The notes beneath the pieces were generated by a model, which searched no databases, had not been told where the DNA came from, and was given only the letters and a program-made list of their open reading frames with translations. Shown piece after piece: positions 12,798 through 48,466 of a stretch of 64,000 nt of DNA. Every line of letters begins with the position of its first letter. Within the stretch, counting starts at the first letter, position 1. Where the stretch lies: positions 1 to 64,000 of IMG/VR virus record IMGVR_UViG_3300045988_143605; one strand, written 5' to 3'. The translations under genes and the position numbers were made by a program. The DNA is from a virus.

Positions 12798-12825
12798 GTG
12801 TCCTGTTGATGTCAGCGACTTTTTC

Positions 12826-13453: not shown

Positions 13454-13747
13454 ATGGGCAGAAAGAGACAAGACATAATAGAAAACACCGAGCAGCCGGA
13501 AGTAACCTTGCAAGACTTCGTTATCCCTGCCAAGATAGAGGCCTTCTGCGAGAAGTATAAATCACTCGACCATTGGCGCGAGGACTGCGATATGTTCACC
13601 GACTATCAGCTTCGCACATACTTCAAGGCAGTGGTATGTCCGCTGGGCGATCCGTTGGCTTTATACCTTCAGGAACTGGCAGCGAGAGGCTTCAAGATGA
13701 AGGACGATGAATGTGGAGAGCCGGTTATCTACGCTGCGCTAAGGTGA
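13454..13747 (+). CDS. hypothetical protein (97 aa)
   Basis: ORF in the same orientation as its neighbours. Confidence 0.5.
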   Translation: MGRKRQDIIENTEQPEVTLQDFVIPAKIEAFCEKYKSLDHWREDCDMFTDYQLRTYFKAVVCPLGDPLALYLQELAARGFKMKDDECGEPVIYAALR

Positions 13748-19900: not shown

Positions 19901-20641
19901 ACCGACCGCAACCAAGCCATTTATATCTGCGCCTTAGCAGTGCAGTTCCTGATGCGCTATCACACTTTTGCCATTGCACCTCAAGGCAATGTGCGTCGCC
20001 GTCAGATGGTACAGAAGCTCACCGAGAGCATCGTGCGCTACTTCGAGTGGTTCTTCTCTCGCAATGAGGTGTATGGTGTGCCGATATGCACGGATGATAT
20101 GTTCAATGAGTTTATGCGCGATTGGGCTGACGCTTCCGAGGGTAAGAGCAAGGAGTATAGTCGAGCTACATTCAAGAAGAAGATATACGACTATTGCGAT
20201 AATATGTCGATAACATGCAACCCGAAGCATCTCTTCGAGAATGAGAGCGACAAGCAGCGGAAATGCTTCAAGCTCCAGGCGTGGGTAACGCAGGAATACT
20301 TTACTGGTCGTGAATGGGAGAATGACAACACCATTGAGCCGAAGTTCATCCGCTATCTGCAAACCTCCAAGCATGTGTTCTTCTTCTTCCGTCCTGGCAA
20401 GGACGCAATGCCGAAGGATTACCGAGAGCTCAAACGCATAGCTAAGCAATATTCCGAGCAGCCTGACCCGCTGCCATTCCGAGACGATGACGGCAATATT
20501 GTACAGCTCACCGATGAAGAGAAAGAACGCTGGGAGAACAACAAGACACGCAAACAGGGTAGGCGAATGGCGGCACCTGCGGCAACGAATAACACAATGG
20601 CAAGTGTTTCGGATATAAAAGATGAAGACTTGCCGTTCTAA
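16982..20641 (+). CDS. DNA primase-helicase (Zn-finger primase N-terminus, SF3/D5-like P-loop C-terminus)
   Basis: CHC2-like Zn finger (CFCPICKRW ... WKCTKTG), possible Toprim acidic motifs, and Walker A AAGGSGKS. 1219 aa. Ends DEDLPF. Confidence 0.85.
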   Translation: MFFHPIINRLANIDLHLLMKSATEQRIEGQTACFCPICKRWQDADVKQTPHFIIYENERGGLYSGVGADNRQAEQGAVKWKCTKTGKTGYGAIELCAAIMNLPMHGASLQRICQRLVKNVYGDSEEVKSAFPEVFAKMDYRTIAQQTIETFSFMPKTDFSPQELAALGCEVTLDKGLPRFGFGKTFTPDLLNKDFRIYSLLSVTLPDVIRDGQHVSEIIHGTPWNPLFVCFASQEIGPQNSYGCFFRPAMAGSEPIVFSTAEEHSVRKVSKWLMGDNVFVYAMDQRKSDNTAVHAAIAKYDPEEKYTETKEVWEENETKDGEPRGTFKRVDAKIPTAEIKARNIVFCRTPEDALSVYYAMRSLRLDKTEDQHFQNFCWYHVAFSIGRRNFWYIERGEWKRENLDFSAVQYQKMNRFAEHVIILYPNDIASQRDCGAICAKFSSLYYAMLPEGFRSRYCRRWQWLYGCSPRSVRDYLLTYTMNAEENFQFDHDLRLPLYSRLRGARNTEPFEIEYPRDPRSGKPKPPTCKVSPTRLWLFMTAHGYYRMIDPESTDLVGQYIHLNKCFVEYIDAKSIIQAAKTILLEYIEQAWRHSDNERRLMSDCANMVDKTFTEKSAGGLQSMVINFADAFDAKTEYFYFNNVALKITPESIHTVSYDDINFFIPSLAKKPYDFTMRVFKIPFTITERQEYRDRLEAIDKKEKMQNQDGSPVYTYDEIKQMRGDLMEWAQTYRWDVNWQGQQEKDLWPILRIVRGFSNTLWEREKDAQRNKEQLSEDEKAVMNAHFANMLSCIGRLCFRSWEGMKNIAPYLLEDNIPDEKQAAGGSGKSVLVNTVVGSAVNVLPVDMKDFMIVTDAKFALTDLLLYPGKYRVVHWEDKQKSFPMKYFYNKVTQGTKVEKKFGDPVGLKMDDSPIHVITSNSPLSDDDPSTIGRFPLVSFSDRFARENQQKHQPERSPSELMKNFDPTPEKLTDTDRNQAIYICALAVQFLMRYHTFAIAPQGNVRRRQMVQKLTESIVRYFEWFFSRNEVYGVPICTDDMFNEFMRDWADASEGKSKEYSRATFKKKIYDYCDNMSITCNPKHLFENESDKQRKCFKLQAWVTQEYFTGREWENDNTIEPKFIRYLQTSKHVFFFFRPGKDAMPKDYRELKRIAKQYSEQPDPLPFRDDDGNIVQLTDEEKERWENNKTRKQGRRMAAPAATNNTMASVSDIKDEDLPF

Positions 20642-21413: not shown

Positions 21414-22019
21414 ATGGCAAGTTACAACGGCAACATCGACCTGCTTTCCTTAAACGGAGCGCAGGTGTTCAAGGGTATCGACACGAATAACCCAGAACGA
21501 GTGTATGTCTGCATACCGGCAGACTTGAACGAAATCAAAGTAGAGCAGGCTCCTAAAGATCCTACTCGCACATTAGCAAAGATGCGTGTGAACATCTGGC
21601 CACTCAACGAGCAGTACAAGGCGAAGGTGCGCCAGGCGGCTTTGGAGCGAGGCGACAGCAACGTGACAGTACCCACGCACGAAATGCAGATGTCTTATTC
21701 GGTTGACTATATCAAGGCAGTCGCACTGAAATTCCCGAAGCTCGTTGAACAGGTAAAGGAATCCAACAAGGGACGTGACCCCGAGATTGTCAATCAAGAC
21801 TTTACCGACGAGAACACCCACCTTTTTAAGGCTATCCGTCAGCGCATGAACAAGCGTCTGGCTATGCTCTATCAACCGCAGACCACACAGCAGCCTTCAC
21901 CATACGCCACATCGAATGTAGGCGTAGCAGGAGCAGCCACTGGATATGTAGCCCCTGCAGAGAATACCGATCCTCTCGCTGGCTATACCGATGTCAACGA
22001 AGACGACCTGCCGTTTTAA
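21414..22019 (+). CDS. SSB-like protein (acidic SSB-type C-terminal tail)
   Basis: Gln/Pro/Gly-rich linker followed by ...DVNEDDLPF (compare bacterial SSB DDDIPF). Sits in the replication block. The N-terminal fold was not verified. Confidence 0.5.
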   Translation: MASYNGNIDLLSLNGAQVFKGIDTNNPERVYVCIPADLNEIKVEQAPKDPTRTLAKMRVNIWPLNEQYKAKVRQAALERGDSNVTVPTHEMQMSYSVDYIKAVALKFPKLVEQVKESNKGRDPEIVNQDFTDENTHLFKAIRQRMNKRLAMLYQPQTTQQPSPYATSNVGVAGAATGYVAPAENTDPLAGYTDVNEDDLPF

Positions 22020-22132: not shown

Positions 22133-23317
22133 ATGAAACTTCAAACCCAATCATCCAAGGCCCTACACGCAGCCCTTAGCAAGTCGGCAAAGTGTATCGG
22201 CTCCAAGAACACCATAGTTATTCTCGATAATGTGTTGTTGACACGCAAGGGGGAGCAGTTCTTCCTAACTTCGTCAACCACCGAGGCGCAGCTTACCATT
22301 CCAGCACCGCTCACCATTTGTAGCGGCAAGTTCGACCGGGATATTGTACTGCCCATCAAGATGCTTAGTGCGCTGTTAAGCACTCTGCCCGATTGCGTGG
22401 TCACATTCGATATACCCGATAATGGTCAGTCATTTACCGTAGAATATTGCACCAGCCGTGAGGATAAGGTGAAGCCTGGCAAGGCGCAGATGTATTTCTT
22501 TCCTGGAGATGATTTTCCACAGATGGTGCAGCCGAAAGCCGAGCAGTCTACAATAGTCACGCTGCCCATGTCGCTGTTCCGCTCCGTTGTAGACACCACC
22601 GATAAGTTTGTCTTCCCCAATGAGCTTCGCCCTATACTCTCAAGTCTGTGTATCGACGTAGCCGAAGACCGTTCCGAAATAGTGTTTGTTGGCACCAACG
22701 GTCATACTCTTGTTAAGGTGAGACATAGTAATGACCCAGCAAAGGGAGGCAGCGACTTTTTCCGTAGTGGTACCCCCTGCAAGACGCTTATCCATCGCAA
22801 CTATTTCCGCACGCTTTCTGCCTTTGATGGCAGCGAGGACATAACCATTGAGAACTACGGTCATACCATCCGATTCACTTCGGGCGACACCGAACTGATA
22901 TGCAAGCATCTGGAGGGCAAATATCCCAACTATAACGCTGTCATTCCCAAGTCCAACCCATTCTATGTAGTTTTCGACAAAAAGGAGATGCTCGACATTC
23001 TGCGCCGTGTCAGTCTGTTCTCAAATAACGCAAGCAATCTCGTAGAGATGAAGAAAAGCGACATGTTCCTCACCGTGTCTGCCAGCGATGCCGACTTTGC
23101 AATATCGGGCGAAGATCAGGTGTGTATAGCCCGCGCCCAGTGTGACGATAACTTCCGCATCGGAATAAAGTCAACAATATTTCAAACTTGCATCAACTCT
23201 ATTCCATCGGACACGATACGTATGCAGTTGCTCGACGCTTCTCACGCAGTCGTTCTCACAGCCGACGAGCCTGCGCCAAAGGTATTATCGCTGTGCATGC
23301 CGATGCTGATTGATTAA
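22133..23317 (+). CDS. dnaN: DNA polymerase III beta sliding clamp homologue
   Basis: 394 aa. The N-terminus (...KNTIVILDNVLLTRKGEQFFLTSSTTEAQLTI...) follows the DnaN pattern. Confidence 0.8.
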   Translation: MKLQTQSSKALHAALSKSAKCIGSKNTIVILDNVLLTRKGEQFFLTSSTTEAQLTIPAPLTICSGKFDRDIVLPIKMLSALLSTLPDCVVTFDIPDNGQSFTVEYCTSREDKVKPGKAQMYFFPGDDFPQMVQPKAEQSTIVTLPMSLFRSVVDTTDKFVFPNELRPILSSLCIDVAEDRSEIVFVGTNGHTLVKVRHSNDPAKGGSDFFRSGTPCKTLIHRNYFRTLSAFDGSEDITIENYGHTIRFTSGDTELICKHLEGKYPNYNAVIPKSNPFYVVFDKKEMLDILRRVSLFSNNASNLVEMKKSDMFLTVSASDADFAISGEDQVCIARAQCDDNFRIGIKSTIFQTCINSIPSDTIRMQLLDASHAVVLTADEPAPKVLSLCMPMLID

Positions 23318-23978: not shown

Positions 23979-24290
23979 ATGAGAACAATCACACAATCCT
24001 ATACCGAGCTTCGCCGCTATATGGAAAAGTGGCAATGGAACGACCCTCGCACGGGGCAACGTGTCACTGGTTTCAATCCCCCGCAGACAGCACGCAACGT
24101 GGCACGTATGCCGTTCTACATACGTTTCCTTACCAAGACGGGACATGTAGACACCGGCACCTGCGTCTGTCTCTCGGTTGACACCATACGCCACCAGCGC
24201 AAGGTGCAGTTTGTAGAGAGTGGCGAGATAAGGGTTGTCAACGATATACTCGTGCTGGAAGTAGACGGTACGAGATTTATAACGCATTAA
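23979..24290 (+). CDS. hypothetical protein (103 aa)
   Basis: Tightly packed after the previous ORF. Confidence 0.5.
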   Translation: MRTITQSYTELRRYMEKWQWNDPRTGQRVTGFNPPQTARNVARMPFYIRFLTKTGHVDTGTCVCLSVDTIRHQRKVQFVESGEIRVVNDILVLEVDGTRFITH

Positions 24291-25599: not shown

Positions 25600-26397
25600 A
25601 TGAATAAAAAAGCACAAGACGCGGTAAAGAAATACAATGATGCGTGCAATCTGCTCGCATCCATGGTCAATGAACAGCTCTTCGACGGTTGTCGCAAGTG
25701 GTATTGGATAGGCGATGAAGTAGGTGGAGTGTGTGATTTCGAGGAAACCGACGTGCTGAATCCGGAAGACATGGTTCGCATCATCGAGAATGGTATGTCC
25801 TACGATGAATACGCCGAGTGGCGCGATGCCAACCTCGACAACAACCGTTACATCAATCTCAAGTCGTGGCTCATGGGGCTGCGGCATGATATGCTGAAGG
25901 AAGAAGTTAAGGAGAATATGAAGCCAATCCTTGATTGTTGTTGTGGTTCTCGTATGTTTTATTTTGACAAGAAAGACCCGAATGTGTTGTTTGCAGACAT
26001 TAGAGAAGTGCATGAAGAACTTTGCGATGGCAGATTACTCGATGTGAATCCTGATGTCTTTGCCGACTGTACTAATATGCCGTTCACTGATGGGTCCTTT
26101 CGTGTGGTTGTCTTCGACCCTCCTCATTTAAAGAATGTTGGATTAAATTCTTGGCTCTGTAAGAAATATGGAATTTTACCAGATAATTGGCAAGAGTTTA
26201 TTAACGACTCTATACACGAGTGTATGAGAGTGTTGGCTGATTACGGTGTCTTGATATTCAAGTGGAACGAACAACAGATTAAGGTTAGTGAAATTCTTGG
26301 CGCAATAAAAGATTATAAACCTATTTTCGGACATCGCACAACATCAAAAAACGCCACTATATGGATGGCTTTTATGAAACATCCAAAATATAAATAA
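25600..26397 (+). CDS. SAM-dependent methyltransferase (DPPH motif)
   Basis: Motif I-like ILDCCCGSRMF and motif IV-like VVVFDPPH. DNA versus RNA target is unresolved. Confidence 0.6.
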   Translation: MNKKAQDAVKKYNDACNLLASMVNEQLFDGCRKWYWIGDEVGGVCDFEETDVLNPEDMVRIIENGMSYDEYAEWRDANLDNNRYINLKSWLMGLRHDMLKEEVKENMKPILDCCCGSRMFYFDKKDPNVLFADIREVHEELCDGRLLDVNPDVFADCTNMPFTDGSFRVVVFDPPHLKNVGLNSWLCKKYGILPDNWQEFINDSIHECMRVLADYGVLIFKWNEQQIKVSEILGAIKDYKPIFGHRTTSKNATIWMAFMKHPKYK

Positions 26398-26532: not shown

Positions 26533-28527
26533 TTATCTTCCACTCGGCAGTACAAACCAACCGCCACCGCCACGGAAGAACTTGCAACCTAAGTACAGCG
26601 TATCGAAGGCATCCGTGAAGTCGGTACGTTGCTGTAGGGGTAGTGTGTCCTCGCTCTCGGGCTTCTTCTCCTGGCTCTTGTCTTTGTGAAATCCCTTGTA
26701 CGAAATCTGCACCTCGCACAGCTGCATGGCGATGATAAGGTCGGGATTGTTCACCTGGTTGATGCGAATGGCGGGGTAGGAGAGGTGAGCCAAGCCGTCG
26801 TTGATGATCTTGTGCTTTACCTCGTGCTTTTCTGGAGCACCCATATCAATGGCCGTCACGTTCCAGCCTCGCTTCTCCAACTCTGCAATCACGGTCATAT
26901 AGAATCGCTCGTCCGACGAAGCATACGAGGCGCCCTGCTTTGCCGTGGAATCATAGAAATACGTCAAGTCGCGGTTGATGGCCCGCTTCGGTGCGTAATA
27001 GTCGGAGAAATCGGCTATCACTTCACGCAGCTTGCGCTCGTTCTTCACATAGAAGCTCTTGATGACGTTCAGACATTCCATGCCGTCGCGCTCATACATC
27101 TGTCCGACCACCAACGTATTGATGTTGGCATTGTAATCCAAGGCTATATACAGAGGAAGAGAGTTGATGCAGTCGGAATCCATGCGTGAGTCGTTGCGCT
27201 CGCCCAATTCCTTGAAGTCGGGTTGATAGCTCTCGCTTGTAACTTTCCTTCCACCGATGATGCCCGACACCTTTTGCGTGGAAAATTTGGCAGTCGATAA
27301 AGGGTCTATTTCATCTGGGATATATCCGTGAACATGGTCGATGTCGAGGTTGGAGTAAAAACCGTCATTACTTTTCTGTATCTTTACATTCAGAATTGAC
27401 ACGGCGAAGGTATATGGCGGAAGATCTCGCTTCATCTGACGGATATAGTCTTCACCCAAAATATCCACATTGTCGAGCGATGACGCACGACGCACGCAGA
27501 AAGCCACACGGCGCAGCTCACGCAAATAGTCTTCAGAGAATTTCTTTGACCGCTGGAACATCTGCATCTCAAAATCCTCTTCCGGCGTGATAAGATACTC
27601 GTAATCGTAAATCAGTTCGGCATCGTCCTGCGGAATGAGTTTATAGTTGACAGCCATCTCCACCATACCCTTAGTGACGTGTTGGCCATGGTTGGGCATT
27701 ATCTTGAATTGTCCCTCATGCTTCATCATCTTCAGAGCCACGGCACGGATCATCGTGCGCAACTCCTTCGGCACCACACGCACCGAGTGGTTGGTCTTCT
27801 TGGCGTTATACAGCAGGTCGTTGTAGCGTATCACCTTGTTGGCGTAATCCTCCAACTGCTCCTGCACCCATCGGTAGGTATTGCCCTTGAATGGCCCCGT
27901 CTCAACGGTCATGTCCAACTTCTCCTCCTCCTTCTCCAACCACGAGCCTTTGGCAGTGAGCGAGGCATCCGAGAGGAAGCGTGTACTTTTATACATCGGG
28001 TTGTGGTCGGAGAAGTTGATGTCGCCCAACGGATGTGTCTGGCCTGAAAGAGCTGGCATCAACTCGTCCGTTACTTTCTTATAAGGAAAGAATCTCGCCT
28101 CGTCGCCTACCATGGCCGAGAACGTGTAAGAGTTGGCAGAGGCGGTCTGTGAGAGCGAGATAAGAACCCATCCGGCGCCATTGGCCAACCAGATGTAGTT
28201 GTCGTAGTTCTTAGGTTTGAAGATACTCTCGCGAGCATGTTTCGGCGGTCGTCCCCAACCGAAGTGAATGCCCTGCGTAAAACCGAACATACGTTCCATG
28301 GCAGCCATCGTACTCGGTATGGTCTTGCCGAAGCCCTGCTGACGCGACACAGCCACCCATGCGCCGAGCATACCAGGCATGGAGTTGCTTGCCGTCCAGA
28401 CGTAAGGAGCCACCAAACCATCGGTCTTACCCACACGGCGGGCAGCAATCACTCGCTCGTCTTTGGCTCCCATATATAGCGACTGCTGCTGAAACTTCGT
28501 TAAGTATATATTATGTGCTTGCTGCAT
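26533..28527 (-). CDS. terL: terminase large subunit
   Basis: Walker A AARRVGKTDG, Walker B-like AMVGDEA, and a C-terminal nuclease-like LYIALDYNANINT. 664 aa. Confidence 0.85.
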   Translation of the reverse strand: MQQAHNIYLTKFQQQSLYMGAKDERVIAARRVGKTDGLVAPYVWTASNSMPGMLGAWVAVSRQQGFGKTIPSTMAAMERMFGFTQGIHFGWGRPPKHARESIFKPKNYDNYIWLANGAGWVLISLSQTASANSYTFSAMVGDEARFFPYKKVTDELMPALSGQTHPLGDINFSDHNPMYKSTRFLSDASLTAKGSWLEKEEEKLDMTVETGPFKGNTYRWVQEQLEDYANKVIRYNDLLYNAKKTNHSVRVVPKELRTMIRAVALKMMKHEGQFKIMPNHGQHVTKGMVEMAVNYKLIPQDDAELIYDYEYLITPEEDFEMQMFQRSKKFSEDYLRELRRVAFCVRRASSLDNVDILGEDYIRQMKRDLPPYTFAVSILNVKIQKSNDGFYSNLDIDHVHGYIPDEIDPLSTAKFSTQKVSGIIGGRKVTSESYQPDFKELGERNDSRMDSDCINSLPLYIALDYNANINTLVVGQMYERDGMECLNVIKSFYVKNERKLREVIADFSDYYAPKRAINRDLTYFYDSTAKQGASYASSDERFYMTVIAELEKRGWNVTAIDMGAPEKHEVKHKIINDGLAHLSYPAIRINQVNNPDLIIAMQLCEVQISYKGFHKDKSQEKKPESEDTLPLQQRTDFTDAFDTLYLGCKFFRGGGGWFVLPSGR

Positions 28528-28802: not shown

Positions 28803-29396
28803 TCAGTTAAACCATTTCACCGTTGTTTCGCCTTTATACCCCTTCTCCCACACGAACCATGCGTAAGCCGCTGCGCTGCTGCCGTACTTATCGAAGTCGC
28901 CATTCATAGCGCATTTCAGTCGTGATGAACTTACCCAAACACGAACGGGAGGGGTAGAGCGGAAGAGAGCGCGTCGAGCCTTGCCTTCGAGGAAAGTCAG
29001 CTTCAGAAACATCGCCACTTTCTTTCCTACGGGGATGATGCTGAGAGCCTTCTCCACAAACTGCTGCGCATATTTGTAGGGTGGATTGGTGACGATGTTA
29101 CCGTCCCATTCCAAATTGTCTATTGCGAGGAAGTCGGCCACTTCGCCGTACCCTCTATCCACAAGGTCGCGGCTTACCACCTCATACCCTGCTGCCTCCA
29201 ACATCCTACTCATGTGACCCTCGCCACACGAAGGCTCAAGAATCCTGCCCTCAAACCGTTCCAGTTTGCACAGCCATTCCGTCGCCTTCGGTTCTGTGGC
29301 ATAGTAATCCTCACGCTGTCTATCCGCGTCTGTATGGTTGCTTGCGCCTAACGTCTTGAACACAGCAGCAGAGCCGCCTACCCAGTCTTTAGCCAT
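28803..29396 (-). CDS. N6-adenine DNA methyltransferase
   Basis: Motif I EPSCGEGH and motif IV NPPY. Preceded by a perfect AAGGAGGT Shine-Dalgarno 5 nt from the ATG, which is unusual in this window. Confidence 0.8.
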   Translation of the reverse strand: MAKDWVGGSAAVFKTLGASNHTDADRQREDYYATEPKATEWLCKLERFEGRILEPSCGEGHMSRMLEAAGYEVVSRDLVDRGYGEVADFLAIDNLEWDGNIVTNPPYKYAQQFVEKALSIIPVGKKVAMFLKLTFLEGKARRALFRSTPPVRVWVSSSRLKCAMNGDFDKYGSSAAAYAWFVWEKGYKGETTVKWFN

Positions 29397-29452: not shown

Positions 29453-30619
29453 TTATAATTCCTCCCCAAAGTCAAATTTCATCTGTTGGAACTTCTCTGC
29501 ATACCATTTTTTGTATGCTTTTCCCGAAATCCACCAGTCGTAGATATTCTCCGCTATTTCGTTTTCTTGCTCCTCTGTCAAGCGGTCAGAAGAGGAGCTG
29601 TCTGAAAACCCTCGTTCGGCAAGTTTCCATATTCCTCGGTTCTGTCTCCCATCCAATGTTTCTGGTCGGGATGCTTGATGTAGCCGCCTGCGTCCTGAGC
29701 AATCCTCTGACGGTTCTGAGAGGCATACAGTCCTTGCGGATGTTCCACCAGATATATTCTCTTTTGAATCCCCCCCCCCGTTTCGGATGGCTTTAATCGT
29801 TTTTATCCAGTTGCGCTTGATATGCGGATAGCGTTCATTCTCGATGCGCTTCTGCTTTGCAGACGACATTGGGCAGCCGATGCAGCCGATGCGATGCCAT
29901 CCCTCGTCGTAGAGCGAGCAATGCGGAACTTTCACTACGTTATTTAAGAACTCCCACACGTCCTTTTCCGTCCAATAGATAATGGGCGATATTAGCAGGC
30001 TCTCTTTGCCGTGGATGCAGCCTAACGTCTGTTCTTCATCAGCATTAGTGATATTCACGCCTTGCTCCTTAGATTTACGGCGAGCACGTTTAGCCTTCTG
30101 TTCCTGTCGGTATTCGTCCAGACCGTCAAGATTACCGCTAAACTTTCGGTTGTTTATCTCCACCTCGTTGCGCTTGGCTCTTCGAGAACTCTCTGCCTTG
30201 CGTATGCCGATTAGCGTCACCTTGCCAGCACCTGCCATTTCCTTATATTCAGTACAACACCAACGCACACGCTTAGTGGGCAGAATCTGCTTTTCTACGG
30301 CAATCTGAAAGATGGATTTGCCCGGCTTTATCAGTTCCACCTCGGGATAGTTCTTCTTTACGAAACGTATCACTTCGGGAGGATCAACGCTCGTAAGATT
30401 CATGTGACCGCGAAATTTCCCCTCAGCCAACTGAGTCATGTGGAAAAGAGCTTGAGAATCCTTTCCACCACTAAACGCCAAGTAATATCCGTTCTCGGCA
30501 TCATAGTTCAGAGCTATCTTCTCTGCTTTTTGCAGCAGCTCCACTGAGTGAAGCATTTTTTTTCGCAGTCTTTCCGAAGCTCGCTCCAATGCTTCGGCAA
30601 GTGTAATGTTTAACTCCAT
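29453..30619 (-). CDS. PAPS-reductase-family PP-loop protein (DndC/phage PAPS-reductase-like)
   Basis: PP-loop AFSGGKDSQ and Cys cluster HRIGCIGCP. Contains a G10 tract (plus-strand C10 at 29770-29779), after which ~54 codons look out of frame. Confidence 0.75.
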   Translation of the reverse strand: MELNITLAEALERASERLRKKMLHSVELLQKAEKIALNYDAENGYYLAFSGGKDSQALFHMTQLAEGKFRGHMNLTSVDPPEVIRFVKKNYPEVELIKPGKSIFQIAVEKQILPTKRVRWCCTEYKEMAGAGKVTLIGIRKAESSRRAKRNEVEINNRKFSGNLDGLDEYRQEQKAKRARRKSKEQGVNITNADEEQTLGCIHGKESLLISPIIYWTEKDVWEFLNNVVKVPHCSLYDEGWHRIGCIGCPMSSAKQKRIENERYPHIKRNWIKTIKAIRNGGGDSKENISGGTSARTVCLSEPSEDCSGRRRLHQASRPETLDGRQNRGIWKLAERGFSDSSSSDRLTEEQENEIAENIYDWWISGKAYKKWYAEKFQQMKFDFGEEL

Positions 30620-30851: not shown

Positions 30852-31664
30852 TCATTCCTTCTCGTCCGTTGGCTTGCCTTCGTGCTGCATCGGCATTTCC
30901 TTACTATTGGATTCTTCATTCTTCCCCTTTCCCTTTTCACTTTCACCTTCCATATACTCGAAGTAGTCCGGCTCCTCCTCTCGCTTGTCGCTAAACATTT
31001 CCTCGTCCTCTATCTCCTGCAGGTCCTTGGTAGTAAGACCATACTTGCGAGCCATGCGTAGCTTCTCCTCCTCGGTGTAGTTGATGCGGTCGCGCTTTAC
31101 GATGCTCACGTCCTGCGTGATGGCGATGCGACTCATGTCCGGCATCTCGTCCGTAGCGTCCTTCTCCTCCTGGAAGTTGCCATACACATTAGCTAAGGCT
31201 TGCATACCCTTATCCACTGCACGATCGTTATTCTGCTGTTTGCCCGTGCGTATCAACCATTCGGCACTGCTCAGATACATCGCCTTGTGGCGCGGACTTT
31301 CGTCGGTCTGGAAGAAACGTATCAGATGGTTGCACACCAACACGTCGTTGTTGAGCTCCGTAACTGTACGCGGACAGATATTGCCCTCATCGTCGAGGGT
31401 AATCTTCAGCGCAAGCACATACTCCTGCGCATCCTTGTTGCCCTGTGCTGCCTGGTTGAAGAACATTTCATAGTCGCGTCGGGCAATATTACGGCACACC
31501 GTCCGAGGGTCGATGTCCTTGTTTTGCACCCATCGCTTGTAGAACTCCGAGCATATCTGCATACGGTAGCGTTGCTCCAGCTTCGGGAACGCCGTCTGCA
31601 TACTTGTGCCGTAGGATAGCCACTTGTCGATGCGAGTTAATGTATTTTGCGTAATTCCTGACAT
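30852..31664 (-). CDS. candidate terminase small subunit / DNA-binding packaging protein
   Basis: First gene of the minus-strand packaging block. Start moved to the internal MSGITQNTL so the promoter at 31685-31720 is upstream. Acidic C-terminus. Assignment is by position only. Confidence 0.35.
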   Translation of the reverse strand: MSGITQNTLTRIDKWLSYGTSMQTAFPKLEQRYRMQICSEFYKRWVQNKDIDPRTVCRNIARRDYEMFFNQAAQGNKDAQEYVLALKITLDDEGNICPRTVTELNNDVLVCNHLIRFFQTDESPRHKAMYLSSAEWLIRTGKQQNNDRAVDKGMQALANVYGNFQEEKDATDEMPDMSRIAITQDVSIVKRDRINYTEEEKLRMARKYGLTTKDLQEIEDEEMFSDKREEEPDYFEYMEGESEKGKGKNEESNSKEMPMQHEGKPTDEKE

Positions 31665-31684: not shown

Positions 31685-31720
31685 CAAAGTTACGATATTT
31701 CCTGTCCCCCGTGCGGACAT
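31685..31720 (-). promoter_or_regulatory. late-class promoter ATGTCCGC-N20-TAacTTTG (minus strand)
   Basis: On the plus strand: CAAAGTTA at 31685-31692 and GCGGACAT at 31713-31720, with a gap of exactly 20 nt. Confidence 0.55.
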
Positions 31721-31743
31721 ACTCAACCTCCCCATACCCCACC

Positions 31744-31779
31744 ATGTCCGCATTGCGTAGCAGCTTATCAGTAACTTTG
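31744..31779 (+). promoter_or_regulatory. late-class promoter ATGTCCGC-N20-TAacTTTG
   Basis: ATGTCCGC at 31744-31751 and TAACTTTG at 31772-31779, gap 20 nt. Divergent from the minus-strand copy. Confidence 0.55.
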
Positions 31780-31821: not shown

Positions 31822-32337
31822 ATGAACAATCCATTCTACGTTTCGCGAGCCATTGCCGCAGTGCTCGGCTTGCTGTGGGTTCACATAGAGCCCTCTATCA
31901 ATTTTATCACCGTGTGTTTCTTCGCCCTCATCATCGACTGCTACACGGCATGGAGGTGCAACCGTCGCATCTACCAACGATACCGTGAAGCCATCAAGCG
32001 CAACCCGAAGTGCAAGATGGACGGTAAGCTGCGCTCCAAGAAGATGGCAAAGATGGTGTGGACATTCTCGGTCTTAATCATGTGCATCTGCCTTGCCTCG
32101 TATCTCGACCGCAACATTCTCGGCTATATGAACACCCACCTCGCCAACCAACTCACGGCCATGTACTGCTTGGTGCAGTTTGTGAGCATACTGGAAAACG
32201 AGAGCACCTGCAACGGAGCAGCCTGGGCAAGAGTGCTTCAAAAGATTGTGGCAGATAAAACCGAGCGACACTTCAACGTAAAGTTGAAAGAGCTGATGAA
32301 GGATAAGGAGGAAGCGGACGAAGCCGCTAAAGAATAA
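31822..32337 (+). CDS. holin-like membrane protein
   Basis: Internal ATG of ORF 31624..32337, after a CA-rich leader. Three hydrophobic segments, the FVSILENES motif typical of a phage holin family, and a charged C-terminus. Confidence 0.5.
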   Translation: MNNPFYVSRAIAAVLGLLWVHIEPSINFITVCFFALIIDCYTAWRCNRRIYQRYREAIKRNPKCKMDGKLRSKKMAKMVWTFSVLIMCICLASYLDRNILGYMNTHLANQLTAMYCLVQFVSILENESTCNGAAWARVLQKIVADKTERHFNVKLKELMKDKEEADEAAKE

Positions 32338-32425: not shown

Positions 32426-33007
32426 ATGACAATAAGCAATATCCTTGAGCATTGGGCTTCCATCTACAAGCCCCTTTCTCATAACCCCGAGAGCGAACGC
32501 CTCGAAGACCAGAGTTTCTTCCGCATCCGCTACATCGACCTTGAGAACATTTTTTCCCGAAACGCCAACATTGTCCACTCGCCGTGTATGCTATACAGCG
32601 TACTGACCACCGGAGAACTCGTTGACGCAAAGAAGGTATCTGTCTCTCACCAGGTGTGGTTTCTCGCCAAGGTAAAGGACACACCGCAGACTCTTGGCCG
32701 TTACGACGGTAACAAGATAGAGCGCACGGCCAACGACCTCACCGACTACTGCAAGGACCTCATAGCCTGGCTTATCGAGGTGAAGCGCACAGGTCGCTGT
32801 CCCGTTACCCATCGCAGTTTTGCAGATGATGCCGTGGTGATGGCAGAGCTGCAAGGCATCTGCACCAGTTCAATCTCCTTCGGCATGGTGGGCGACATCT
32901 ATGCCGGACAATGGCTCGTCGTTGGCATGGATTGGAAGAGCCTGCAACCGCTCTACAACTTCGCGTGTGGCAGTAACGGCAAGTATATCGTGCCGAAAGA
33001 ACCCTAA
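32426..33007 (+). CDS. hypothetical structural-module protein (193 aa)
   Basis: ORF upstream of the tape measure gene. Confidence 0.5.
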   Translation: MTISNILEHWASIYKPLSHNPESERLEDQSFFRIRYIDLENIFSRNANIVHSPCMLYSVLTTGELVDAKKVSVSHQVWFLAKVKDTPQTLGRYDGNKIERTANDLTDYCKDLIAWLIEVKRTGRCPVTHRSFADDAVVMAELQGICTSSISFGMVGDIYAGQWLVVGMDWKSLQPLYNFACGSNGKYIVPKEP

Positions 33008-33028: not shown

Positions 33029-33556
33029 ATGGGTAAACCAATCAAAAACCCGATGTTTCCCTTCAATAGGGTAGCGGCTCGCTTTTTTCAGCAGACCATC
33101 AATCAGCTTGAGGTGAACACCATGACGCAGTGTATCTATCCCAAGGAGGTGTATAACGGATATGCTGTCGTCAACCAGAAGCGTAAGGAGATGGGTCAGT
33201 GGTACTCAACTGGCGAGGGTGCAAATTCGTTTGCCGGAAGGATCATCGAAGCCGGAGAAGGAGGCAAGGTGACGATGGCTTTCCAGTTCAACGACTACAT
33301 GCGCTTTGTGGATATGGGTGTCGGTCAAGGAACGACATACGAGGACGTAGAGTCGGGCAAGAAGGCTCGTTTCCAGACGCGATACGTCAGCAAGTGGGAC
33401 CGCAAGTCGGGTAAGTCGCAACGTCCTGCCATTATGATGGAGCTTCGCCACCTTCAGCAGCGCATAGCCAACTACCTTGTTGACTTCTACGGCTACGATG
33501 GCGAGGTAAAACTTATAAACACCTTCGAGGAAGCAAGTCCGATAAAGATTATGTAA
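33029..33556 (+). CDS. hypothetical structural-module protein (175 aa)
   Basis: ORF immediately upstream of the tape measure gene. Confidence 0.5.
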   Translation: MGKPIKNPMFPFNRVAARFFQQTINQLEVNTMTQCIYPKEVYNGYAVVNQKRKEMGQWYSTGEGANSFAGRIIEAGEGGKVTMAFQFNDYMRFVDMGVGQGTTYEDVESGKKARFQTRYVSKWDRKSGKSQRPAIMMELRHLQQRIANYLVDFYGYDGEVKLINTFEEASPIKIM

Positions 33557-33580: not shown

Positions 33581-36500
33581 ATGGCTGCAGCAAAGAAAAC
33601 TCAAATCGTCATAACTGCCAATGCCGCCGTTGCCAAAAAGGTGATGGATGAGCTTCAGCAGCGCATTGACGGTATAAAACAGAAGATGGCTGCGCTCGAC
33701 GTGACGACAAAGCAGGGACAGCGCGAGTTTAAGAAACTGGAGAAAGAATTGGTTTCGTACAACTCGGCTGTGACGCAGAATATCACGAATACGGAGCGTA
33801 TAGACAAGGCTATGAAAAATTTGTCGGGCACGTCGCTTAACGAACTAAAGCGCGCGTTGTCCGCTGCCAAGAGTGAGCTTGGCAAGATGTCGGCAAGCGA
33901 CAAGGGACTGAAGCAGATGCAAGGTAACGTAAATGCGCTGCAGGCGCAAATCGACAAACTCACCGGCTCGGTGCATAAGCAGGGCAACGCATGGCAGACA
34001 GCGCTCAAAAACTTAACGGCGTATGTAGGGCTGTTTGGGGCGTTTAATATGATAAAATCAAAGCTGACAGACATATTGAAGTTGAATTTCCAGTATTCTG
34101 ACTCATTGGCTAATGTGCGTAAGGTGAGTAATCTTTCGATGGAGTCTGTTAATGATTTGTCACGCCAGTTGGCGAAGATAGACAGCCGTACCAGTCTTGA
34201 GGGACTTACACAATTGGCTTATGTGGGTAGTCGTATGGGTATGGGCAAGTATGGGGCGTCAGGTCTGGCAGAATTTGCAGCAGCCAGCGATCGTGTGAAT
34301 GTGGCATTGAAAGAGGATTTGGGTGATGATGCGATGCTTACTTTGTCTAAGTTCGTGGAAACGATGGGAGAGGTAGAAAAGCACGGTGGTAACATCAGCG
34401 ATGCTTTTGATTCTGTTTCAAGTTCCATCTTTAAATTGGCTTCTACATCTACGGCCAATGGTGGTAATATCCTTGAATTTGCGAAGCGACTTACGGGTTT
34501 GTCTAAGGTGTCGCACATTACAAGCGACCAACTTTTAGGTCTTGCCTCTGCCAGCGACTCTCTTATGCTTATGCCGGAAGTAGCCAGTACCGCTTTTGGT
34601 AAGTTAATAAGCAGTTTATGGACTAACTACCACGACATAGAGAAGATGTTGGGTATGCAAGAGGACTCCCTAAAAGACATGATGAGCAAGGGAGAAACCA
34701 TGCAGGCACTTGTAACCGTGCTTCAGAACGTGAGCGATAAAAACCTCAACTCTATGGACGAGTACTTCAAAGAGTTTGGCTCAGATGGTCAACGTTTGAA
34801 AAGCGTAGTCGTTACTATGGCTCAGAATGTAGATGTTCTGAAATCCCATCTTGACGAGTCAAGTAAGGCTTACAAAGATGCCACGGCCGTATCAAAGGAA
34901 TATGCCATACAGCAAGAGACCGCACAGGCTATAATTGAGAGAGCCAATAACATGTGGAATAAGGCTTTTGTTAATCCTGAAGGCATTGATTCCGTCAAGG
35001 AAATAGCAAAGGTATGGTACGATTTCTCGAAAACGCTTACGCAATCTACTCCATTTATGAGGTCTGCAAAGATATTGATGTGGGAGATAAAGACATCCGT
35101 TGAAATGTTGCTCAAAATATTACCAGGATTGGTAGCATATATGGGTACTCGCGGTTTGGTGTGGGCTTTTTCTAAGTTATTGCCGTTGATGATAGGTGTG
35201 TCTGGTAGCGGTGTTGTAAAATTCTTCACATTGCTAACTATGGCGGTACATGGCAATGCCGTTGCGGTTCGCTTGTTGCATATACGCTGGACAGCCATGA
35301 CTCTCGCAATGAAAGCGAATGTTATTGGTTTTGCAATATCTGCTATTGCTACACTTGGCACATGGATATATAGCCTTGTAAAAAATACTGATAATGCCAC
35401 AAAATCAGTCGAACAATTTGACAGGTCGCTAACTGGTGTTCGCAACAAGGCAAATCAGGCTGTCGGGGAACTTGATGCTTATTATCGTGCTATCAAGCGG
35501 GCAAAGAAAGGGTCTTTTGAATATCAGGCTGCAATTAAGGTCTATAATGACAAATTCGGAGTCTATTTCAAAAAGCTCGAAAGAGAGAATGGAATGGTAA
35601 AGGATTTGGCGGCCTCTTATCGCGAAGCTGCAAAGGCTATTCGTGCTAAGATGTACGTACAGATGGAGCAAGATGATAGGGATAAGTTCGTAAAGCCTCG
35701 TGCTGGCAGGTCTTTGGATAGGTTGGGCGAGTATGGGCAAATTGCACCTGAAGGCTTTGAGCAGGAAATGTTGGAAGCCTACACCAAAGACTCCTACGGA
35801 AAACAAATGAATGTTGTTGTAAAAGAACTTGCCCAGAGATTTGGAGTAAAAGATGTTAGCAATGTTCTTGCATCTGAAAACAGAGGTTTGACAAAGGCTG
35901 TTAGGCGTGAGAAAGTGCGAAAGCGTTCTTTATTTGGAGATCCGTATTATGTATATGAGGATAAGGATGTAAGTGCTAACGAGCAACAACTTTTTAGAGC
36001 CTTGCGTTATGTTCGTCAGGAACGAGCAACGCATAATACAGAATTAGGCATAGATAAAAAGTATGAGCCTGTCAGAAAACAGATGGATAACTACATTCTT
36101 TCTACGACAGGAGGTAACGAGGATTTGAATGTTCCTGATGAGAGTGGCAAAAATGGAAAGACAGGCTCAGGAAGAAACGGTAATGAGAACAAAAAAGAGG
36201 AGCAGCAGACAAAGGCTCGCGCAAATGCTCTTATTGCTAATATCAAGGCTTTCTATGAGGAACAAATGCGCAAATACCTGGAATGGGTGGCTCAGATGAA
36301 CGCCGATGGCGAAAAGGTTAGCGAAGGACAACAGAAGGAACAGTTGGATTATCTGCAATCGCAAATGGATCGTGCTCTTGGTACGGCTCGCCAGTCTATC
36401 ACTAATCTTGGCGATGGCTGGAAAGAGTTCTATTCCCACATGGATGAGGATGTGATGGTTTACGATGAGGAAACTTCTAAGCAACTGCTTGATTCGATTG

Positions 36501-38407
36501 GCAAAACGGATGTTGGCGAACTTCACAAGTTGTTCACCAAACTGTCCGGCGACCTCTCTCGTGAAAACAATAAGTCTCTTGCAGAAAACCTCGGCGCATT
36601 GCTCGACCAGATATTTGCCAATGGCTCTAAGGAATTGCGCGAGGCTGCAGAGAAGTTGCTTGCCCGTCAGCGCGAGATACAGAAGATTTTGAATGAGCAC
36701 GACTATACAGGTGCTGTTGACCGCAACACTCGTGGCAATTTCGACCGCTTAGGTTTCCTACAGCCAGCCAAGGATATTCGTGCTGACTCTCCCGAAGGTC
36801 TTGAAAAGATGAATGCTGCTTTTGATAAGCTGACCACTAAGGCACGCGAGTCTATTACCGTATTATATAGTCTTAATCCGGAGAGTGAGAATTTTCAGAA
36901 TCGGTTCCTTCAGTTCTTGTCTGTAGCCGACGAAGGGTTTGATTTCTCGGCTCTTAAGGCACAAGACCTCAAAGCTCTTTATCTCGAACTGATAAAATAC
37001 AACGACGAATACGAGTCGGCAAGCAAGAAGCGTGACGATGAGCGCAAGAAACTGAACGATTACGCTTGGTCTAACACTGATTATTATAAGGAATACCAGA
37101 AGGCACTGCCTGGTGCCGAGCAAGAGGTGGCAGTCAAGGGTAGCTATCGTAATGCCGGTCAGCGTATGGGCATGGAGTCAGTGTCGGCTTTAGACCCTGA
37201 ACTCGAACTGATGAAGGCTCGTATGGAGTTCGCCCAGCAGTATTACACGTTCCTGGAAGAGCACAATGCCACCGAGCAGCAGCTTGCTGATGCCCGAAAG
37301 TCAATAATGATGGAACAGGCTAACTATGCCAAAAAACTCACGGGAGATATGTTTGAGCAATATAACTCACTCCTTACTTTCATGGGTCCGTTGCAAACCT
37401 TTGGCGAGTCGGTAGGTGATGCCTTCGTTACTATGACCGAGAACGCAGCCGAAGGACGCAAGGCTTTGAAGACAGCCTTGAAGCAAATGATAAAATCGTT
37501 CGCTACCAACACCCTTCAGATGATTAGTCAACAGCAAATAGACCGCGCGCAAACCACTGCGCACTATACGCAGTTACTTCTCATGCAGCAGGCATTTGGT
37601 ACGGCAAAGGTAGCAGGTGAAGCAGCCACTGGAGTGGCTTTACTTACGACAAAGACGGTAAATAACCAGACAGAGGAACAGCTTGAGGTTGCCCATCAAC
37701 AGGCAATGGCAGCTCTTCGCTCTGCAGGTATCTTCGGTTGGTGTGTTAGCACTCTCGGACCTGTTGCTGGTCCAATCGCTTACGCTGCAATGATGGCAAT
37801 CCTCATGGGGTTACTAAACTTTGCAATTAGCAAGGTTGGAGGAAGTGATAACTCTAATAATAGCAACGCAAAATCCTCGAACACAAAAATCGTGTCCGGT
37901 ATGCTTACCTACGACTCCGGTAACGTGCAAGACCTCCGTCCGTTTGTCGGCAACGATGGCAGCCTCTATTGGGCGACCGAGGATGACAAACCCCACAATG
38001 GTGTATCACTCCTCACGCAGCCCACTGCCACTTCTATTAACGGTCAACCATCTCTTGTAGCCGAGAACGGCCCAGAACTGGTAATCGGACGCGAGACAAC
38101 CCAGGCGATGATGATGAACAACCCGCAACTATTGAAAGCCCTCGTAAACTACGACCGCAACTATTCCGGTCGCCGTGCTTACGACACTGGCAATATAGCC
38201 GAGACAAGCCCCACAGTAGCCGCAGGGTCGACCGTAAGCGACGAAATGGTGTCTTACCAAGCTAAAACCAACGTAGCCCTTCTACAAGCCGTAAACACGC
38301 TCCTGCAACGCTTAGAGCAACCTATCGAGGCAAAGATTGATATGTACGGCCGTGGCAAACTCTATGACAGCATGACAAAGGCTAATCAGTTTATGAAAAA
38401 CAAATAA
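33581..38407 (+). CDS. tail tape measure protein (1608 aa)
   Basis: Long coiled-coil N-terminus, a TP901-type core-like segment (...SDQLLGLASASDSLMLMPEVASTAFGKLI...), internal hydrophobic segments, and C-terminal ...VAENGPELVIGRE. Confidence 0.85.
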   Translation: MAAAKKTQIVITANAAVAKKVMDELQQRIDGIKQKMAALDVTTKQGQREFKKLEKELVSYNSAVTQNITNTERIDKAMKNLSGTSLNELKRALSAAKSELGKMSASDKGLKQMQGNVNALQAQIDKLTGSVHKQGNAWQTALKNLTAYVGLFGAFNMIKSKLTDILKLNFQYSDSLANVRKVSNLSMESVNDLSRQLAKIDSRTSLEGLTQLAYVGSRMGMGKYGASGLAEFAAASDRVNVALKEDLGDDAMLTLSKFVETMGEVEKHGGNISDAFDSVSSSIFKLASTSTANGGNILEFAKRLTGLSKVSHITSDQLLGLASASDSLMLMPEVASTAFGKLISSLWTNYHDIEKMLGMQEDSLKDMMSKGETMQALVTVLQNVSDKNLNSMDEYFKEFGSDGQRLKSVVVTMAQNVDVLKSHLDESSKAYKDATAVSKEYAIQQETAQAIIERANNMWNKAFVNPEGIDSVKEIAKVWYDFSKTLTQSTPFMRSAKILMWEIKTSVEMLLKILPGLVAYMGTRGLVWAFSKLLPLMIGVSGSGVVKFFTLLTMAVHGNAVAVRLLHIRWTAMTLAMKANVIGFAISAIATLGTWIYSLVKNTDNATKSVEQFDRSLTGVRNKANQAVGELDAYYRAIKRAKKGSFEYQAAIKVYNDKFGVYFKKLERENGMVKDLAASYREAAKAIRAKMYVQMEQDDRDKFVKPRAGRSLDRLGEYGQIAPEGFEQEMLEAYTKDSYGKQMNVVVKELAQRFGVKDVSNVLASENRGLTKAVRREKVRKRSLFGDPYYVYEDKDVSANEQQLFRALRYVRQERATHNTELGIDKKYEPVRKQMDNYILSTTGGNEDLNVPDESGKNGKTGSGRNGNENKKEEQQTKARANALIANIKAFYEEQMRKYLEWVAQMNADGEKVSEGQQKEQLDYLQSQMDRALGTARQSITNLGDGWKEFYSHMDEDVMVYDEETSKQLLDSIGKTDVGELHKLFTKLSGDLSRENNKSLAENLGALLDQIFANGSKELREAAEKLLARQREIQKILNEHDYTGAVDRNTRGNFDRLGFLQPAKDIRADSPEGLEKMNAAFDKLTTKARESITVLYSLNPESENFQNRFLQFLSVADEGFDFSALKAQDLKALYLELIKYNDEYESASKKRDDERKKLNDYAWSNTDYYKEYQKALPGAEQEVAVKGSYRNAGQRMGMESVSALDPELELMKARMEFAQQYYTFLEEHNATEQQLADARKSIMMEQANYAKKLTGDMFEQYNSLLTFMGPLQTFGESVGDAFVTMTENAAEGRKALKTALKQMIKSFATNTLQMISQQQIDRAQTTAHYTQLLLMQQAFGTAKVAGEAATGVALLTTKTVNNQTEEQLEVAHQQAMAALRSAGIFGWCVSTLGPVAGPIAYAAMMAILMGLLNFAISKVGGSDNSNNSNAKSSNTKIVSGMLTYDSGNVQDLRPFVGNDGSLYWATEDDKPHNGVSLLTQPTATSINGQPSLVAENGPELVIGRETTQAMMMNNPQLLKALVNYDRNYSGRRAYDTGNIAETSPTVAAGSTVSDEMVSYQAKTNVALLQAVNTLLQRLEQPIEAKIDMYGRGKLYDSMTKANQFMKNK

Positions 38408-41823: not shown

Positions 41824-42558
41824 ATGCCAAACATTTACCTTCGCTTACCTACGAGTCGTTGCCAGTTCTTTCGCAACCGCGACCCAAAGCACACGCTTGC
41901 TCAGGACGAGCCGTTGATATTCAATATGTACATGCCAGAGCATTTCGTGATGCGCAACTATCTGTCTAATGCTGCTGCAGTTACCCAACGTGTCAATATG
42001 CAGTGTTTCTCTCATCAGCAATGGCGTAATATGATGCAGGGAAGGTCGCCACAGGGAGGAAGCGTCATACTGATGCGCAATCCGCACGAATATCTTTCCT
42101 TTGAAGAGGTGCAGCAGCTCAATGGCAAACAGGAATATTCCAAGAGCGACAACGAGGACTACCTATGTATAAAACTACCCTCGGAAGTTGAGGTGGTGGA
42201 CGTGGTGAGACAGGTCACTCCTTCCTGGAACTTGAGTTCGCGCGGCATCCGTCAACTGCTCGTCATGCTCAACAATGACTTCAAGCGTAGCGTGGTGGAA
42301 TGGGCTATGTCTACTTTCGACTTCTGTACGTCCAACAACCGCATCATCTGTCGTCGCCAGACAGCTATGCTTGAGCGTTTTCTGATGCGTTACGGCATCG
42401 AACCTAACGAGAACGAGAAAGACTGCTTGCGACGCATCATCAACCGATGGCTAACGTCAGAGAATAACAACTTCAAGGCCTATTCGTGTATCGATATGCA
42501 GTATGTTGATACTAATGAAAAGTCATTCTTGGTTGACGATATAGTGTATGTAGATTAA
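41824..42558 (+). CDS. hypothetical protein (244 aa)
   Basis: Internal ATG of ORF 41650..42558, just after the stop of the previous gene. Confidence 0.5.
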   Translation: MPNIYLRLPTSRCQFFRNRDPKHTLAQDEPLIFNMYMPEHFVMRNYLSNAAAVTQRVNMQCFSHQQWRNMMQGRSPQGGSVILMRNPHEYLSFEEVQQLNGKQEYSKSDNEDYLCIKLPSEVEVVDVVRQVTPSWNLSSRGIRQLLVMLNNDFKRSVVEWAMSTFDFCTSNNRIICRRQTAMLERFLMRYGIEPNENEKDCLRRIINRWLTSENNNFKAYSCIDMQYVDTNEKSFLVDDIVYVD

Positions 42559-43148: not shown

Positions 43149-43182
43149 GCGTCGTTGTCCGTGAGGATAGCGGCGTTTTTTT
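43149..43182 (+). terminator. terminator hairpin with GTCCGTGAGGATA loop
   Basis: GCGTCG pairs with CGGCGT around the loop motif 43157-43169, followed by T7. Confidence 0.65.
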
Positions 43183-43208
43183 GTCCTAAACAATACTGAA
43201 GTAACCTT

Positions 43209-43216
43209 TAATTTTG
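43209..43216 (+). promoter_or_regulatory. -7 box TAatTTTG (tRNA promoter)
   Basis: TAnnTTTG followed by CA, 18 nt upstream of the tRNA 5' end. Confidence 0.55.
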
Positions 43217-43233
43217 CACATGGATAACAACAC

Positions 43234-43307
43234 AGCGGAGTGGCAGCAGTTGGTAGCTCACTTGGCTCATAACCAAGAGGCCGAAGGTTCGAGTCCTTCC
43301 TCCGCAA
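43234..43307 (+). tRNA. tRNA-Met (anticodon CAT; could also be a lysidine-type Ile2)
   Basis: Anticodon arm CTTGG-CTCATAA-CCAAG, T-arm GAAGG-TTCGAGT-CCTTC, and acceptor stem GCGGAG/CTCCGC with an A1-A72 mismatch. The D-stem is weak (3 bp AGC/GCT). No encoded CCA. Confidence 0.75.
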
Positions 43308-43364
43308 CTCAGTCGGTAAAAAGATTGATTTTTCAGGATTACAACACAAACACTAAATTTACTA

Positions 43365-48410: not shown

Positions 48411-48436
48411 TCATTAGAATATCTTATATCGCCACA

Positions 48437-48466
48437 AGCCTCACGTTAGCAGCGTGAGGCTTTTTA
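48437..48466 (+). terminator. rho-independent terminator
   Basis: AGCCTCACG pairs with CGTGAGGCT, followed by TTTTT. Confidence 0.7.

Follow-up and report, generated by a model that had tools for sequence, protein, structure and literature searches.

The closest described counterparts in architecture of the promoters reported here are the middle promoters of phage T4, which depend on MotA and AsiA. T4 middle promoters keep the downstream element of the primary σ factor, have the −35 element swapped for an asymmetric box that is specific to the phage and lies at a fixed distance, and serve a temporal class of genes; the accessory proteins are small and are not recognizable as σ factors. We compared with them a set of putative promoters in a stretch of 64,000 nucleotides (positions 1 to 64,000 of IMG/VR record IMGVR_UViG_3300045988_143605; hereafter the window) that is part of an uncultured ~90-100 kb Prevotella gut phage. 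Bacteroidota use an unusual primary σ factor (σA), whose promoters carry a −7 element, TAnnTTTG, and a −33 element, TTTG. In the window promoters the −7 element is kept, and a pentamer, TGTCC, lies 22 nt upstream of it (N22) in the region where the TTTG would be. The comparison draws on established knowledge of T4, and the likeness is one of architecture only. The MotA box is a 9-bp sequence, (t/a)(t/a)(t/a)TGCTTtA, centred at −30 and ~12 bp from the −10 element, whereas the core in the window is 5 bp long, is centred near −37 and lies 22 bp from the box. In addition, the window promoters have the −7/−33 architecture of Bacteroidota σA, and the genes under them look late, not middle. As the sequence and position of the box differ and no MotA or AsiA homologues were found, the TGTCC class is not a member of the T4 MotA/AsiA family.

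Mor and C of phage Mu, Ogr of P2 and Delta of P4 activate middle or late morphogenesis operons from promoters with a usable −10 element and no host −35 element, the activator being bound at or near −35. Mor and C are dimers on dyads centred at about −43.5, and Ogr and Delta recognize TGT-N12-ACA at about −55. The TGTCC class differs from these, and from class II activation, in that there is no dyad centred at −41.5, −43.5 or −55 and the site lies at −35 itself. A rigid geometry together with divergent or unrecognizable σ-like parts is found in T4 late transcription (gp55, gp33 and the sliding clamp) and with extracytoplasmic function (ECF) σ factors, and the window phage also encodes a sliding clamp (22133-23317). 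However, T4 late promoters consist of the −10 element alone (TATAAATA) with no upstream box, and ECF promoters have a −10 element of their own, often CGTC-like, whereas the TGTCC class has the primary-σ box. Canonical Bacteroidota σA promoters share with the TGTCC class the −7 element, A-rich downstream leaders and an upstream element in the same region, but their spacing ranges over 19-21 nt while that of the TGTCC class is invariant and the TTTG is absent. Neither the motif nor late promoters of Bacteroidota or Prevotella phages were described in the literature that we searched.

TGTCC is paired with the −7 box at a fixed distance

The initial annotation had reported four copies of ATGTCCGC-N20-TAnnTTTG, two of them forming an inverted repeat at 31.7 kb. 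All four are exact matches (31685-31720 on the minus strand; 31744-31779, 51092-51127 and 60214-60249 on the plus strand), and 100 dinucleotide-preserving shuffles contained none. The 8-mer ATGTCCGC alone was unremarkable (7 seen, 4.7 expected) and TGTCC alone was neither enriched nor avoided (100 seen versus 95 expected genome-wide), indicating that the signal lies in the constant distance to the −7 box. When TGTCC-Nx-TAnnTTTG was counted in the window for x = 16-28, six sites had x = 22, one had x = 18 and none fell elsewhere. The two sites at N22 beyond the original four lie at 12798-12833 and 43181-43216 (both plus), and relatives have at least one more past the end of the window, so that the four-site regulon of the initial annotation was real but understated. 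The extent of the motif also had to be revised. The upstream box is fixed as proposed, but its conserved part is wTGTCC(g/c)(c/t), with the core 22 nt upstream of TAnnTTTG, and not the full 8-mer; the flanking (CC) and (CCC) that had been included are present in only some window copies and are weak across the family. The inverted repeat at 31.7 kb has 8-nt arms separated by 23 nt, and the remaining four window sites are single copies.

The same annotation had described a distinct class in which the −33 element of ordinary promoters is replaced, and comparison with the ordinary promoters of the window agrees with this. There are 29 intergenic TAnnTTTG boxes, six of the TGTCC type and nine with TT(T)G at N19-21, mostly at N20: TTTG stands at exactly N20 in four of the nine (boxes at 232, 4741, 9115 and 9272), and the other five have TTG or TTTG at N19-21. 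The −7 element is present at 6/6 TGTCC sites, and its family logo, TA(a/t)(c)TTTG(c), is like that of ordinary promoters. TTTG or TTG at N19-21 is absent from all six, where the position reads CCGC, CCTG or CCTA. With the T of TA placed at about −12, TGTCC spans about −39 to −35; it therefore overlaps the place of the −33 TTTG (about −36 to −33), shifted 2-3 bp upstream.

Hairpins followed by U-runs occur 6-93 nt upstream of each of the four unidirectional sites. They lie at 12757-12791 (dG −20, z −4.5) before the 12798 site, at 43149-43176 (z −5.0) before the 43181 site, where the terminator abuts the promoter, at 51020-51059 (z −4.9) before the 51092 site and at 60023-60122 (z −4.7) before the 60214 site. 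Because these sites are placed just after terminators, their transcription units need an initiation signal of their own. The −7 boxes are 17-42 nt from the first gene, which after 43216 is a tRNA gene.

Two of the hairpins have features of their own. The one between the gene at 59568-59963 and the portal promoter is a 100-nt imperfect hairpin (60023-60130, dG −46.9 kcal/mol) followed by a U-run, and represents either a terminator of unusual size or a small structured RNA. The terminator at 43149-43176, with a 12-bp stem and a GTGA tetraloop, recurs before the head and portal promoters in relatives L199-L315, and its stem changes are compensatory (TTGTCC/GGATAG versus TATTC/GAATGG). The TGTCC within this stem was considered as a functional copy and rejected, as relatives keep the hairpin and lose the TGTCC.

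The motif and its spacing are conserved in related phages

More than 140 IMG/VR contigs of ~50-106 kb carry a large terminase 77-97% identical to that of the window phage, and metagenome bins together with one isolate assign the group to Prevotella. A 20 kb nucleotide query gave no match among cultured-phage records, and a protein search returned only relatives with less than 30% identity; the family thus has no close cultured relative. The initial annotation had named, as an outcome that would refute it, a failure of motif and spacing to be conserved in related phages; both are kept. In 197 late-region loci from related contigs (4.0 Mb) we counted 399 sites at N22 and no more than one at each of N18-21 and N23-26, so that the spacing is as invariant as had been claimed. 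Expressed as distinct sequence contexts, there were 262 at N22 compared with 0-9 at other spacings and ~0-5 for scrambled control 5-mers. A logo of 296 distinct instances held information solely in wTGTCC(g/c)(c/t) and the −7 box, with no dyad partner upstream or downstream. The density of sites was 0.85-1.18 per 10 kb in late-region flanks versus 0.13 in early-region flanks.

Individual loci give the same picture. The divergent intergenic region between the packaging block and the holin-like gene was taken from 69 relatives (62 distinct sequences), and in both halves the core is held in the same register to its own −7 box. Variants of this region include ATGTCCGT, ATGTCCGA, CTGTCCGC, TTGTCCGT, ATGTCCCA, TTGTCCCT and ATGTCCTT, and the packaging-side copy reads (a/g/c)CGGACAt or tGGGACAa at N20 from its box. 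The gap between the divergent copies varies from 23 to >150 nt, and elsewhere the region often cannot be aligned. TGTCC-N22-TAnnTTTG was present upstream of the protease gene in 32/32 distinct variants (38 relatives) and upstream of gene 51150 in 20/20. Upstream of the portal gene the exact pattern was found within 150 nt of the start in 33/70 distinct variants; others have TGTCT, or TTGTCCCC-N20-TAACTTTA further upstream, and some relatives lack a portal promoter, the portal gene there abutting the gene 51150 homologue. The further site beyond the end of the window lies past the portal module, upstream of an open reading frame (ORF) of at least 744 aa, and some relatives have a site upstream of a helix-turn-helix (HTH) gene near the genome end. 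We regard it as very likely that the promoter class exists and is conserved.

In seven relatives (L011, L018, L025, L037, L044, L047 and L058) palindromic GTGAAGAG/CTCTTCAC repeats of up to ~150 nt are inserted between the divergent promoters, in the region corresponding to 31721-31743 of the window, and leave each promoter's own spacing intact. These inserts perhaps represent a small element that is mobile or can expand.

The architecture also occurs at greater distances. A contig of Prevotella sp. MGM1 (contig204, NZ_BEWV01000204.1, 90,283 bp; L323), with a large terminase 50% identical to that of the window phage, has three sites in 22 kb, and contig L089 has two. Loci L326-L331, which were reached through homologues of the gene at 41824-42558, have one or two sites each, sometimes at N21 or with a TAnnTTCG box. 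The 40.8 kb human-faecal phage scaffold MT835542.1 (L359; large terminase 27% identical) carries two late-region sites of the form TGTCCTTTAT-N18-TAnnTTTG (7535-7563 and 18356-18384, minus), in which the core is at N23, one base further from the box. Polaribacter phage Leef_1 has no TGTCC-type site. A scan of the whole collection with the exact 36-nt pattern gave ~70 matches outside the family, mostly single and within coding sequence; most look like chance, while those in L089, L116/L125/L158 and L191, on short fragments, look genuine.

Genes downstream of the TGTCC promoters

Genes were called by scanning the main ORFs of the window with Pfam and PHROGs, and by tblastn for the terminase and portal. 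Replication and maintenance genes occupy ~1-25 kb and include an N6 methyltransferase, a Cro/CI-type HTH protein, an NAD-dependent ligase, ParA, a Rep3-type initiator, an exonuclease, a 1219-aa primase/helicase-like protein and the β sliding clamp. The packaging block (26.5-31.7 kb) is on the minus strand with the large terminase at its end, and the plus-strand genes to its right include holin-like, tape-measure-like, tRNA-Met, prohead protease, putative capsid, LysR, RtcB and portal genes.

The packaging-block promoter (31685-31720, minus; ATGTCCGC at 31720-31713 and −7 box TAACTTTG at 31692-31685) is followed by g270 (30852-31664), a phosphoadenosine phosphosulfate (PAPS) reductase-like gene (29453-30619), a methyltransferase gene (28803-29396), a 75-aa ORF and the large terminase gene (26533-28527), which was called from a weak PHROG match and tblastn matches to annotated terminases. 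Divergent from it, the tail/lysis promoter (31744-31779, plus) precedes the holin-like gene (31822-32337), the genes at 32426-33007 and 33029-33556, and the tape-measure-like gene (33581-38407). The head-gene promoter (43181-43216, plus; TTGTCCTA-N20-TAATTTTG) precedes tRNA-Met (43234-43308), the prohead protease/scaffold gene (43365-45047; phrog_53, head maturation protease) and a gene (45118-46410) whose 430-aa product is, by position and conservation, a putative major capsid protein. The tRNA-Met, with anticodon CAT, lies between the TGTCC promoter and the protease gene, is conserved in almost all of the close relatives and, from its place just below the promoter, would be co-transcribed with the head genes. 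The fifth promoter (51092-51127, plus) lies upstream of gene 51150 (51150-52223, 357 aa, no family match), and the portal promoter (60214-60249, plus) upstream of the portal gene (60287-62005), whose call rests on a tblastn match (E 2e-20) to the portal annotated in Polaribacter phage Leef_1 and which is followed by a methyltransferase gene (62028-62798) and a DUF6712 gene (62829-63899). The putative capsid, portal and gene 51150 products had no match among sequences of solved structures. The claim that the sites precede morphogenesis or lysis genes thus held for packaging, tail/lysis, head and portal, but not throughout: gene 51150 has no family match, and the sixth promoter (12798-12833, plus; GTGTCCTG-N20-TAACTTTG, with TGTCC at 12799-12803 and the −7 box at 12826-12833), which precedes a lipoprotein operon (12859-13275, 13454-13747 and 13809-14333), is in the early region. 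Relative L348 has a homologous site upstream of its g12859 homologue. The class as a whole is probably late.

Between gene 51150 and the portal gene the window has an accessory block (52249-60000) of patchily distributed genes, among them an RtcB RNA ligase gene (53256-54431), a YopX-domain protein gene (54482-54961), genes for membrane proteins and others. The block is missing from relatives L289, L297 and L304, in which the portal gene comes next after the gene 51150 homologue; this adjacency indicates that the 52-60 kb block is an insertion that brought a second promoter.

Search for the factor that reads TGTCC

We searched the 64 kb window and ~20 kb of flanking sequence from two relatives (10 kb past each end), i.e. 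~84 of ~86 kb of the family genome. No Sigma70_r2, r3, r4 or other σ family was found by Pfam at E ≤ 0.01 in the ~90 ORFs, nor did PHROGs scans of the main ORFs reveal a σ factor, so that the initial annotation was right in recognizing none. Homologues of MotA and AsiA were likewise not found by Pfam and PHROGs over the ~90 ORFs, although functional analogues may exist.

One gene, at 41824-42558 (plus, 244 aa), emerged as a candidate. It is the last but one in a small plus-strand operon that also contains a primase-like gene and a dUTPase gene and is served by an ordinary promoter at 39218, and it lies just upstream of the head-gene TGTCC promoter. No other gene is at once non-structural by annotation, universally conserved and adjacent to late genes. 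A homologue is present in 38/38 close relatives and also in the distant motif carriers L323, L089 and L326-L331, in several of which it is preceded by a dedicated ordinary promoter of the TT(T)G type. With a shallow alignment an AlphaFold2 model of the product had a predicted local distance difference test score (pLDDT) of 47; with a deeper alignment built from homologues of the L089 copy, the model reached pLDDT 84 and a predicted template modelling score (pTM) of 0.79. A Foldseek search of this model against PDB and BFVD gave nothing with E below 0.4, and a profile search of PDB sequences gave no match. A search of the loci with a profile of this protein returned the same family alone, so that it supplies no independent sample of gene-motif co-occurrence. 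The gene is a lead, not a finding.

We also considered the LysR-family regulator encoded within the late region (47484-48410) and rejected it as the reader, as LysR proteins bind dyads and the sites are monomeric without dyad symmetry. LysR-regulated promoters have a T-N11-A dyad near −65 and an activation site near −35, but the logo showed no conserved upstream dyad, and those segments of the distant motif carriers L323 and L089 that were available contained no detectable LysR homologue. The gene is full length (HTH_1 and LysR_substrate), has its own ordinary promoters (47359 and 47382) and a terminator (48436-48462), and is ~91% identical in 33/38 relatives; it is unusual cargo for a phage.

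How the TGTCC promoters may be read

With moderate confidence we favour the explanation that the sites are phage-specific hybrid promoters at which host σA reads the −7 box and a phage factor supplies the contact in the −33 region. We infer that transcription starts at these sites and that the reader of TGTCC is encoded by the phage. Host RNA polymerase with σA would still recognize TAnnTTTG, but the host holoenzyme alone would use these promoters poorly, the −33 contact being absent. A factor, most probably encoded by the phage and expressed from early or middle promoters of the ordinary TTTG type, would then sit on or remodel σ region 4 and the β-flap and provide a sequence-specific contact with TGTCC. 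This switch would jointly turn on the operons for packaging, head, portal, tail and lysis, and transcription would restart in each unit just after a terminator. Because TGTCC occupies the −33 region, its reader must take the space of σ region 4 on the DNA, and we prefer a factor that replaces or remodels region 4 since the −7 box is the same as in ordinary promoters and no σ-family domain was found. The near-expected frequency of TGTCC is consistent with a contact of low affinity that is made within the holoenzyme rather than with a free-standing operator.

Several observations weigh against this explanation. A spacing that allows no deviation is seen more typically with a single σ polypeptide (of the ECF type) than with an accessory activator. 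Beyond the lead at 41824-42558 no gene is singled out as the reader, and the product of that gene has no detectable DNA-binding or σ-like fold. MT835542.1 has no detectable homologue of it despite its two N23 sites. The 12798 site falls in the replication/early part of the genome, and late expression is suggested by gene content alone.

A single alternative σ factor, either a divergent phage protein or a host one, with a σA-like region 2 and a TGTCC-specific region 4, would read both halves of the promoter and would account directly for the rigid spacing (399 sites at N22, at most one at neighbouring spacings), which is typical of one σ polypeptide; the element is also an asymmetric 5 bp without a dyad and sits where a −35/−33 element would. 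However, no σ family was detected at E ≤ 0.01 in ~90 ORFs that make up most of the family pan-genome, nor in PHROGs. Known alternative σ factors, moreover, normally alter the −10 element too, while the −7 box here is that of ordinary promoters. We consider an alternative σ factor unlikely.

It is rather improbable that the phages borrow a factor or regulon of the host (Prevotella or Bacteroidales), TGTCC being a cellular activator site copied by several phage lineages. The architecture is shared by phages with only 27-50% identity between large terminases and a GC content from 38% to 56%, and the presence of sites in MT835542.1, in which no homologue of the sole phage candidate is detectable, leaves room for a host-encoded reader. 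However, every instance was found in phage late regions, the presence of a factor before infection would not alone give temporal control, and no such host motif was found in the literature.

The third explanation, that TGTCC is the operator of a repressor which holds off −33-less σA promoters until late in infection or in a carrier or lysogenic state, is improbable. The phage encodes a Cro/CI-type HTH protein (6042-6266) and a CI-like protein (14447-15133, minus), its plasmid-like ParA and Rep functions suggest a carrier state, and the site overlaps the −35 region. A repressor would not, however, need single-bp register with the −7 box, yet the spacing never varies; the site, a single 5-mer, shows no dyad symmetry, and the host TTTG is missing every time, which argues for a positive contact by the element. 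Finally, it is very improbable that the element has no transcriptional role and marks a packaging, recombination or methylation site, an invertible switch or duplicated intergenic ancestry: the two 31.7 kb copies do make an inverted repeat and the phage has four DNA methyltransferases, but no second copy accompanies the other four sites, the distance between the arms is highly variable whereas that from arm to box is constant, both elements persist at some loci where the sequence between and around them has fully diverged, and TGTCC alone is not enriched.

The hybrid promoters that we favour can be taken one step further, although this is a speculative extension that we think unlikely to prove correct as a whole. 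It would be the first system resembling σ appropriation outside the T4 group, in which a phage protein without a known fold (the product of 41824-42558, say, or a different small early protein) docks on the Bacteroidota RNA polymerase-σA complex and, with a rigid geometry, re-aims the −33 contact from TTTG to TGTCC.

Other features of the phage genome

Elements for plasmid-like maintenance lie at 9039-9400, 9415-10281 and 11581-12750 (ParA, a Rep3-type initiator with a WH2 domain and a 360-nt AT-rich stretch). The AT-rich stretch is crowded with copies, in either orientation, of the short repeats GTAGATA and TACTTAT. Whole records of ~90-100 kb are frequent among the related contigs, in Prevotella bins and in one isolate. 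The plasmid-like genes and the whole-contig records suggest a phage-plasmid or carrier-state lifestyle.

In the replication region, the 1219-aa primase/helicase-like protein (16982-20641) and a 201-aa protein (21414-22019) both end in acidic C-terminal (D/E)DLPF tails, which resemble the DDDIPF tip of bacterial single-stranded DNA-binding protein (SSB). The 201-aa protein may be a divergent SSB, and the primase/helicase-like protein may mimic the SSB tail. Two genes past the sliding clamp, 23979-24290 encodes a basic protein of 103 aa (pI 9.8) with no family match; it is the best-kept early-region gene of the family (mean identity 89% versus 67% for the clamp). The four DNA methyltransferase-like genes are at 2136-2819, 25600-26397, 28803-29396 and 62028-62798, and one of them sits within the packaging operon beside the PAPS-reductase-like gene. 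An Rfam scan returned tRNA only.

Implications for Prevotella phages

Apart from crAss-like phages, temporal gene control in Bacteroidota phages is essentially uncharted. The hybrid promoter, sharply defined and deeply conserved, gives direct access to the late switch of Prevotella gut phages that have genomes of ~90-100 kb, form an abundant family and are known from hundreds of contigs. The motif defines membership of the regulon, including that of the tRNA-Met and of several genes without an assigned function, and can serve as bait for a new factor that redirects RNA polymerase. Experiments look feasible, as the cultured Prevotella sp. MGM1 bears a 90 kb relative with the same promoters, and infection-dependent, orthogonal promoters of this kind might possibly be used for engineering Prevotella or Bacteroides. 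If the appropriation of σA by a phage factor is true, it would define the late switch of a large and abundant lineage of human-gut Prevotella phages.

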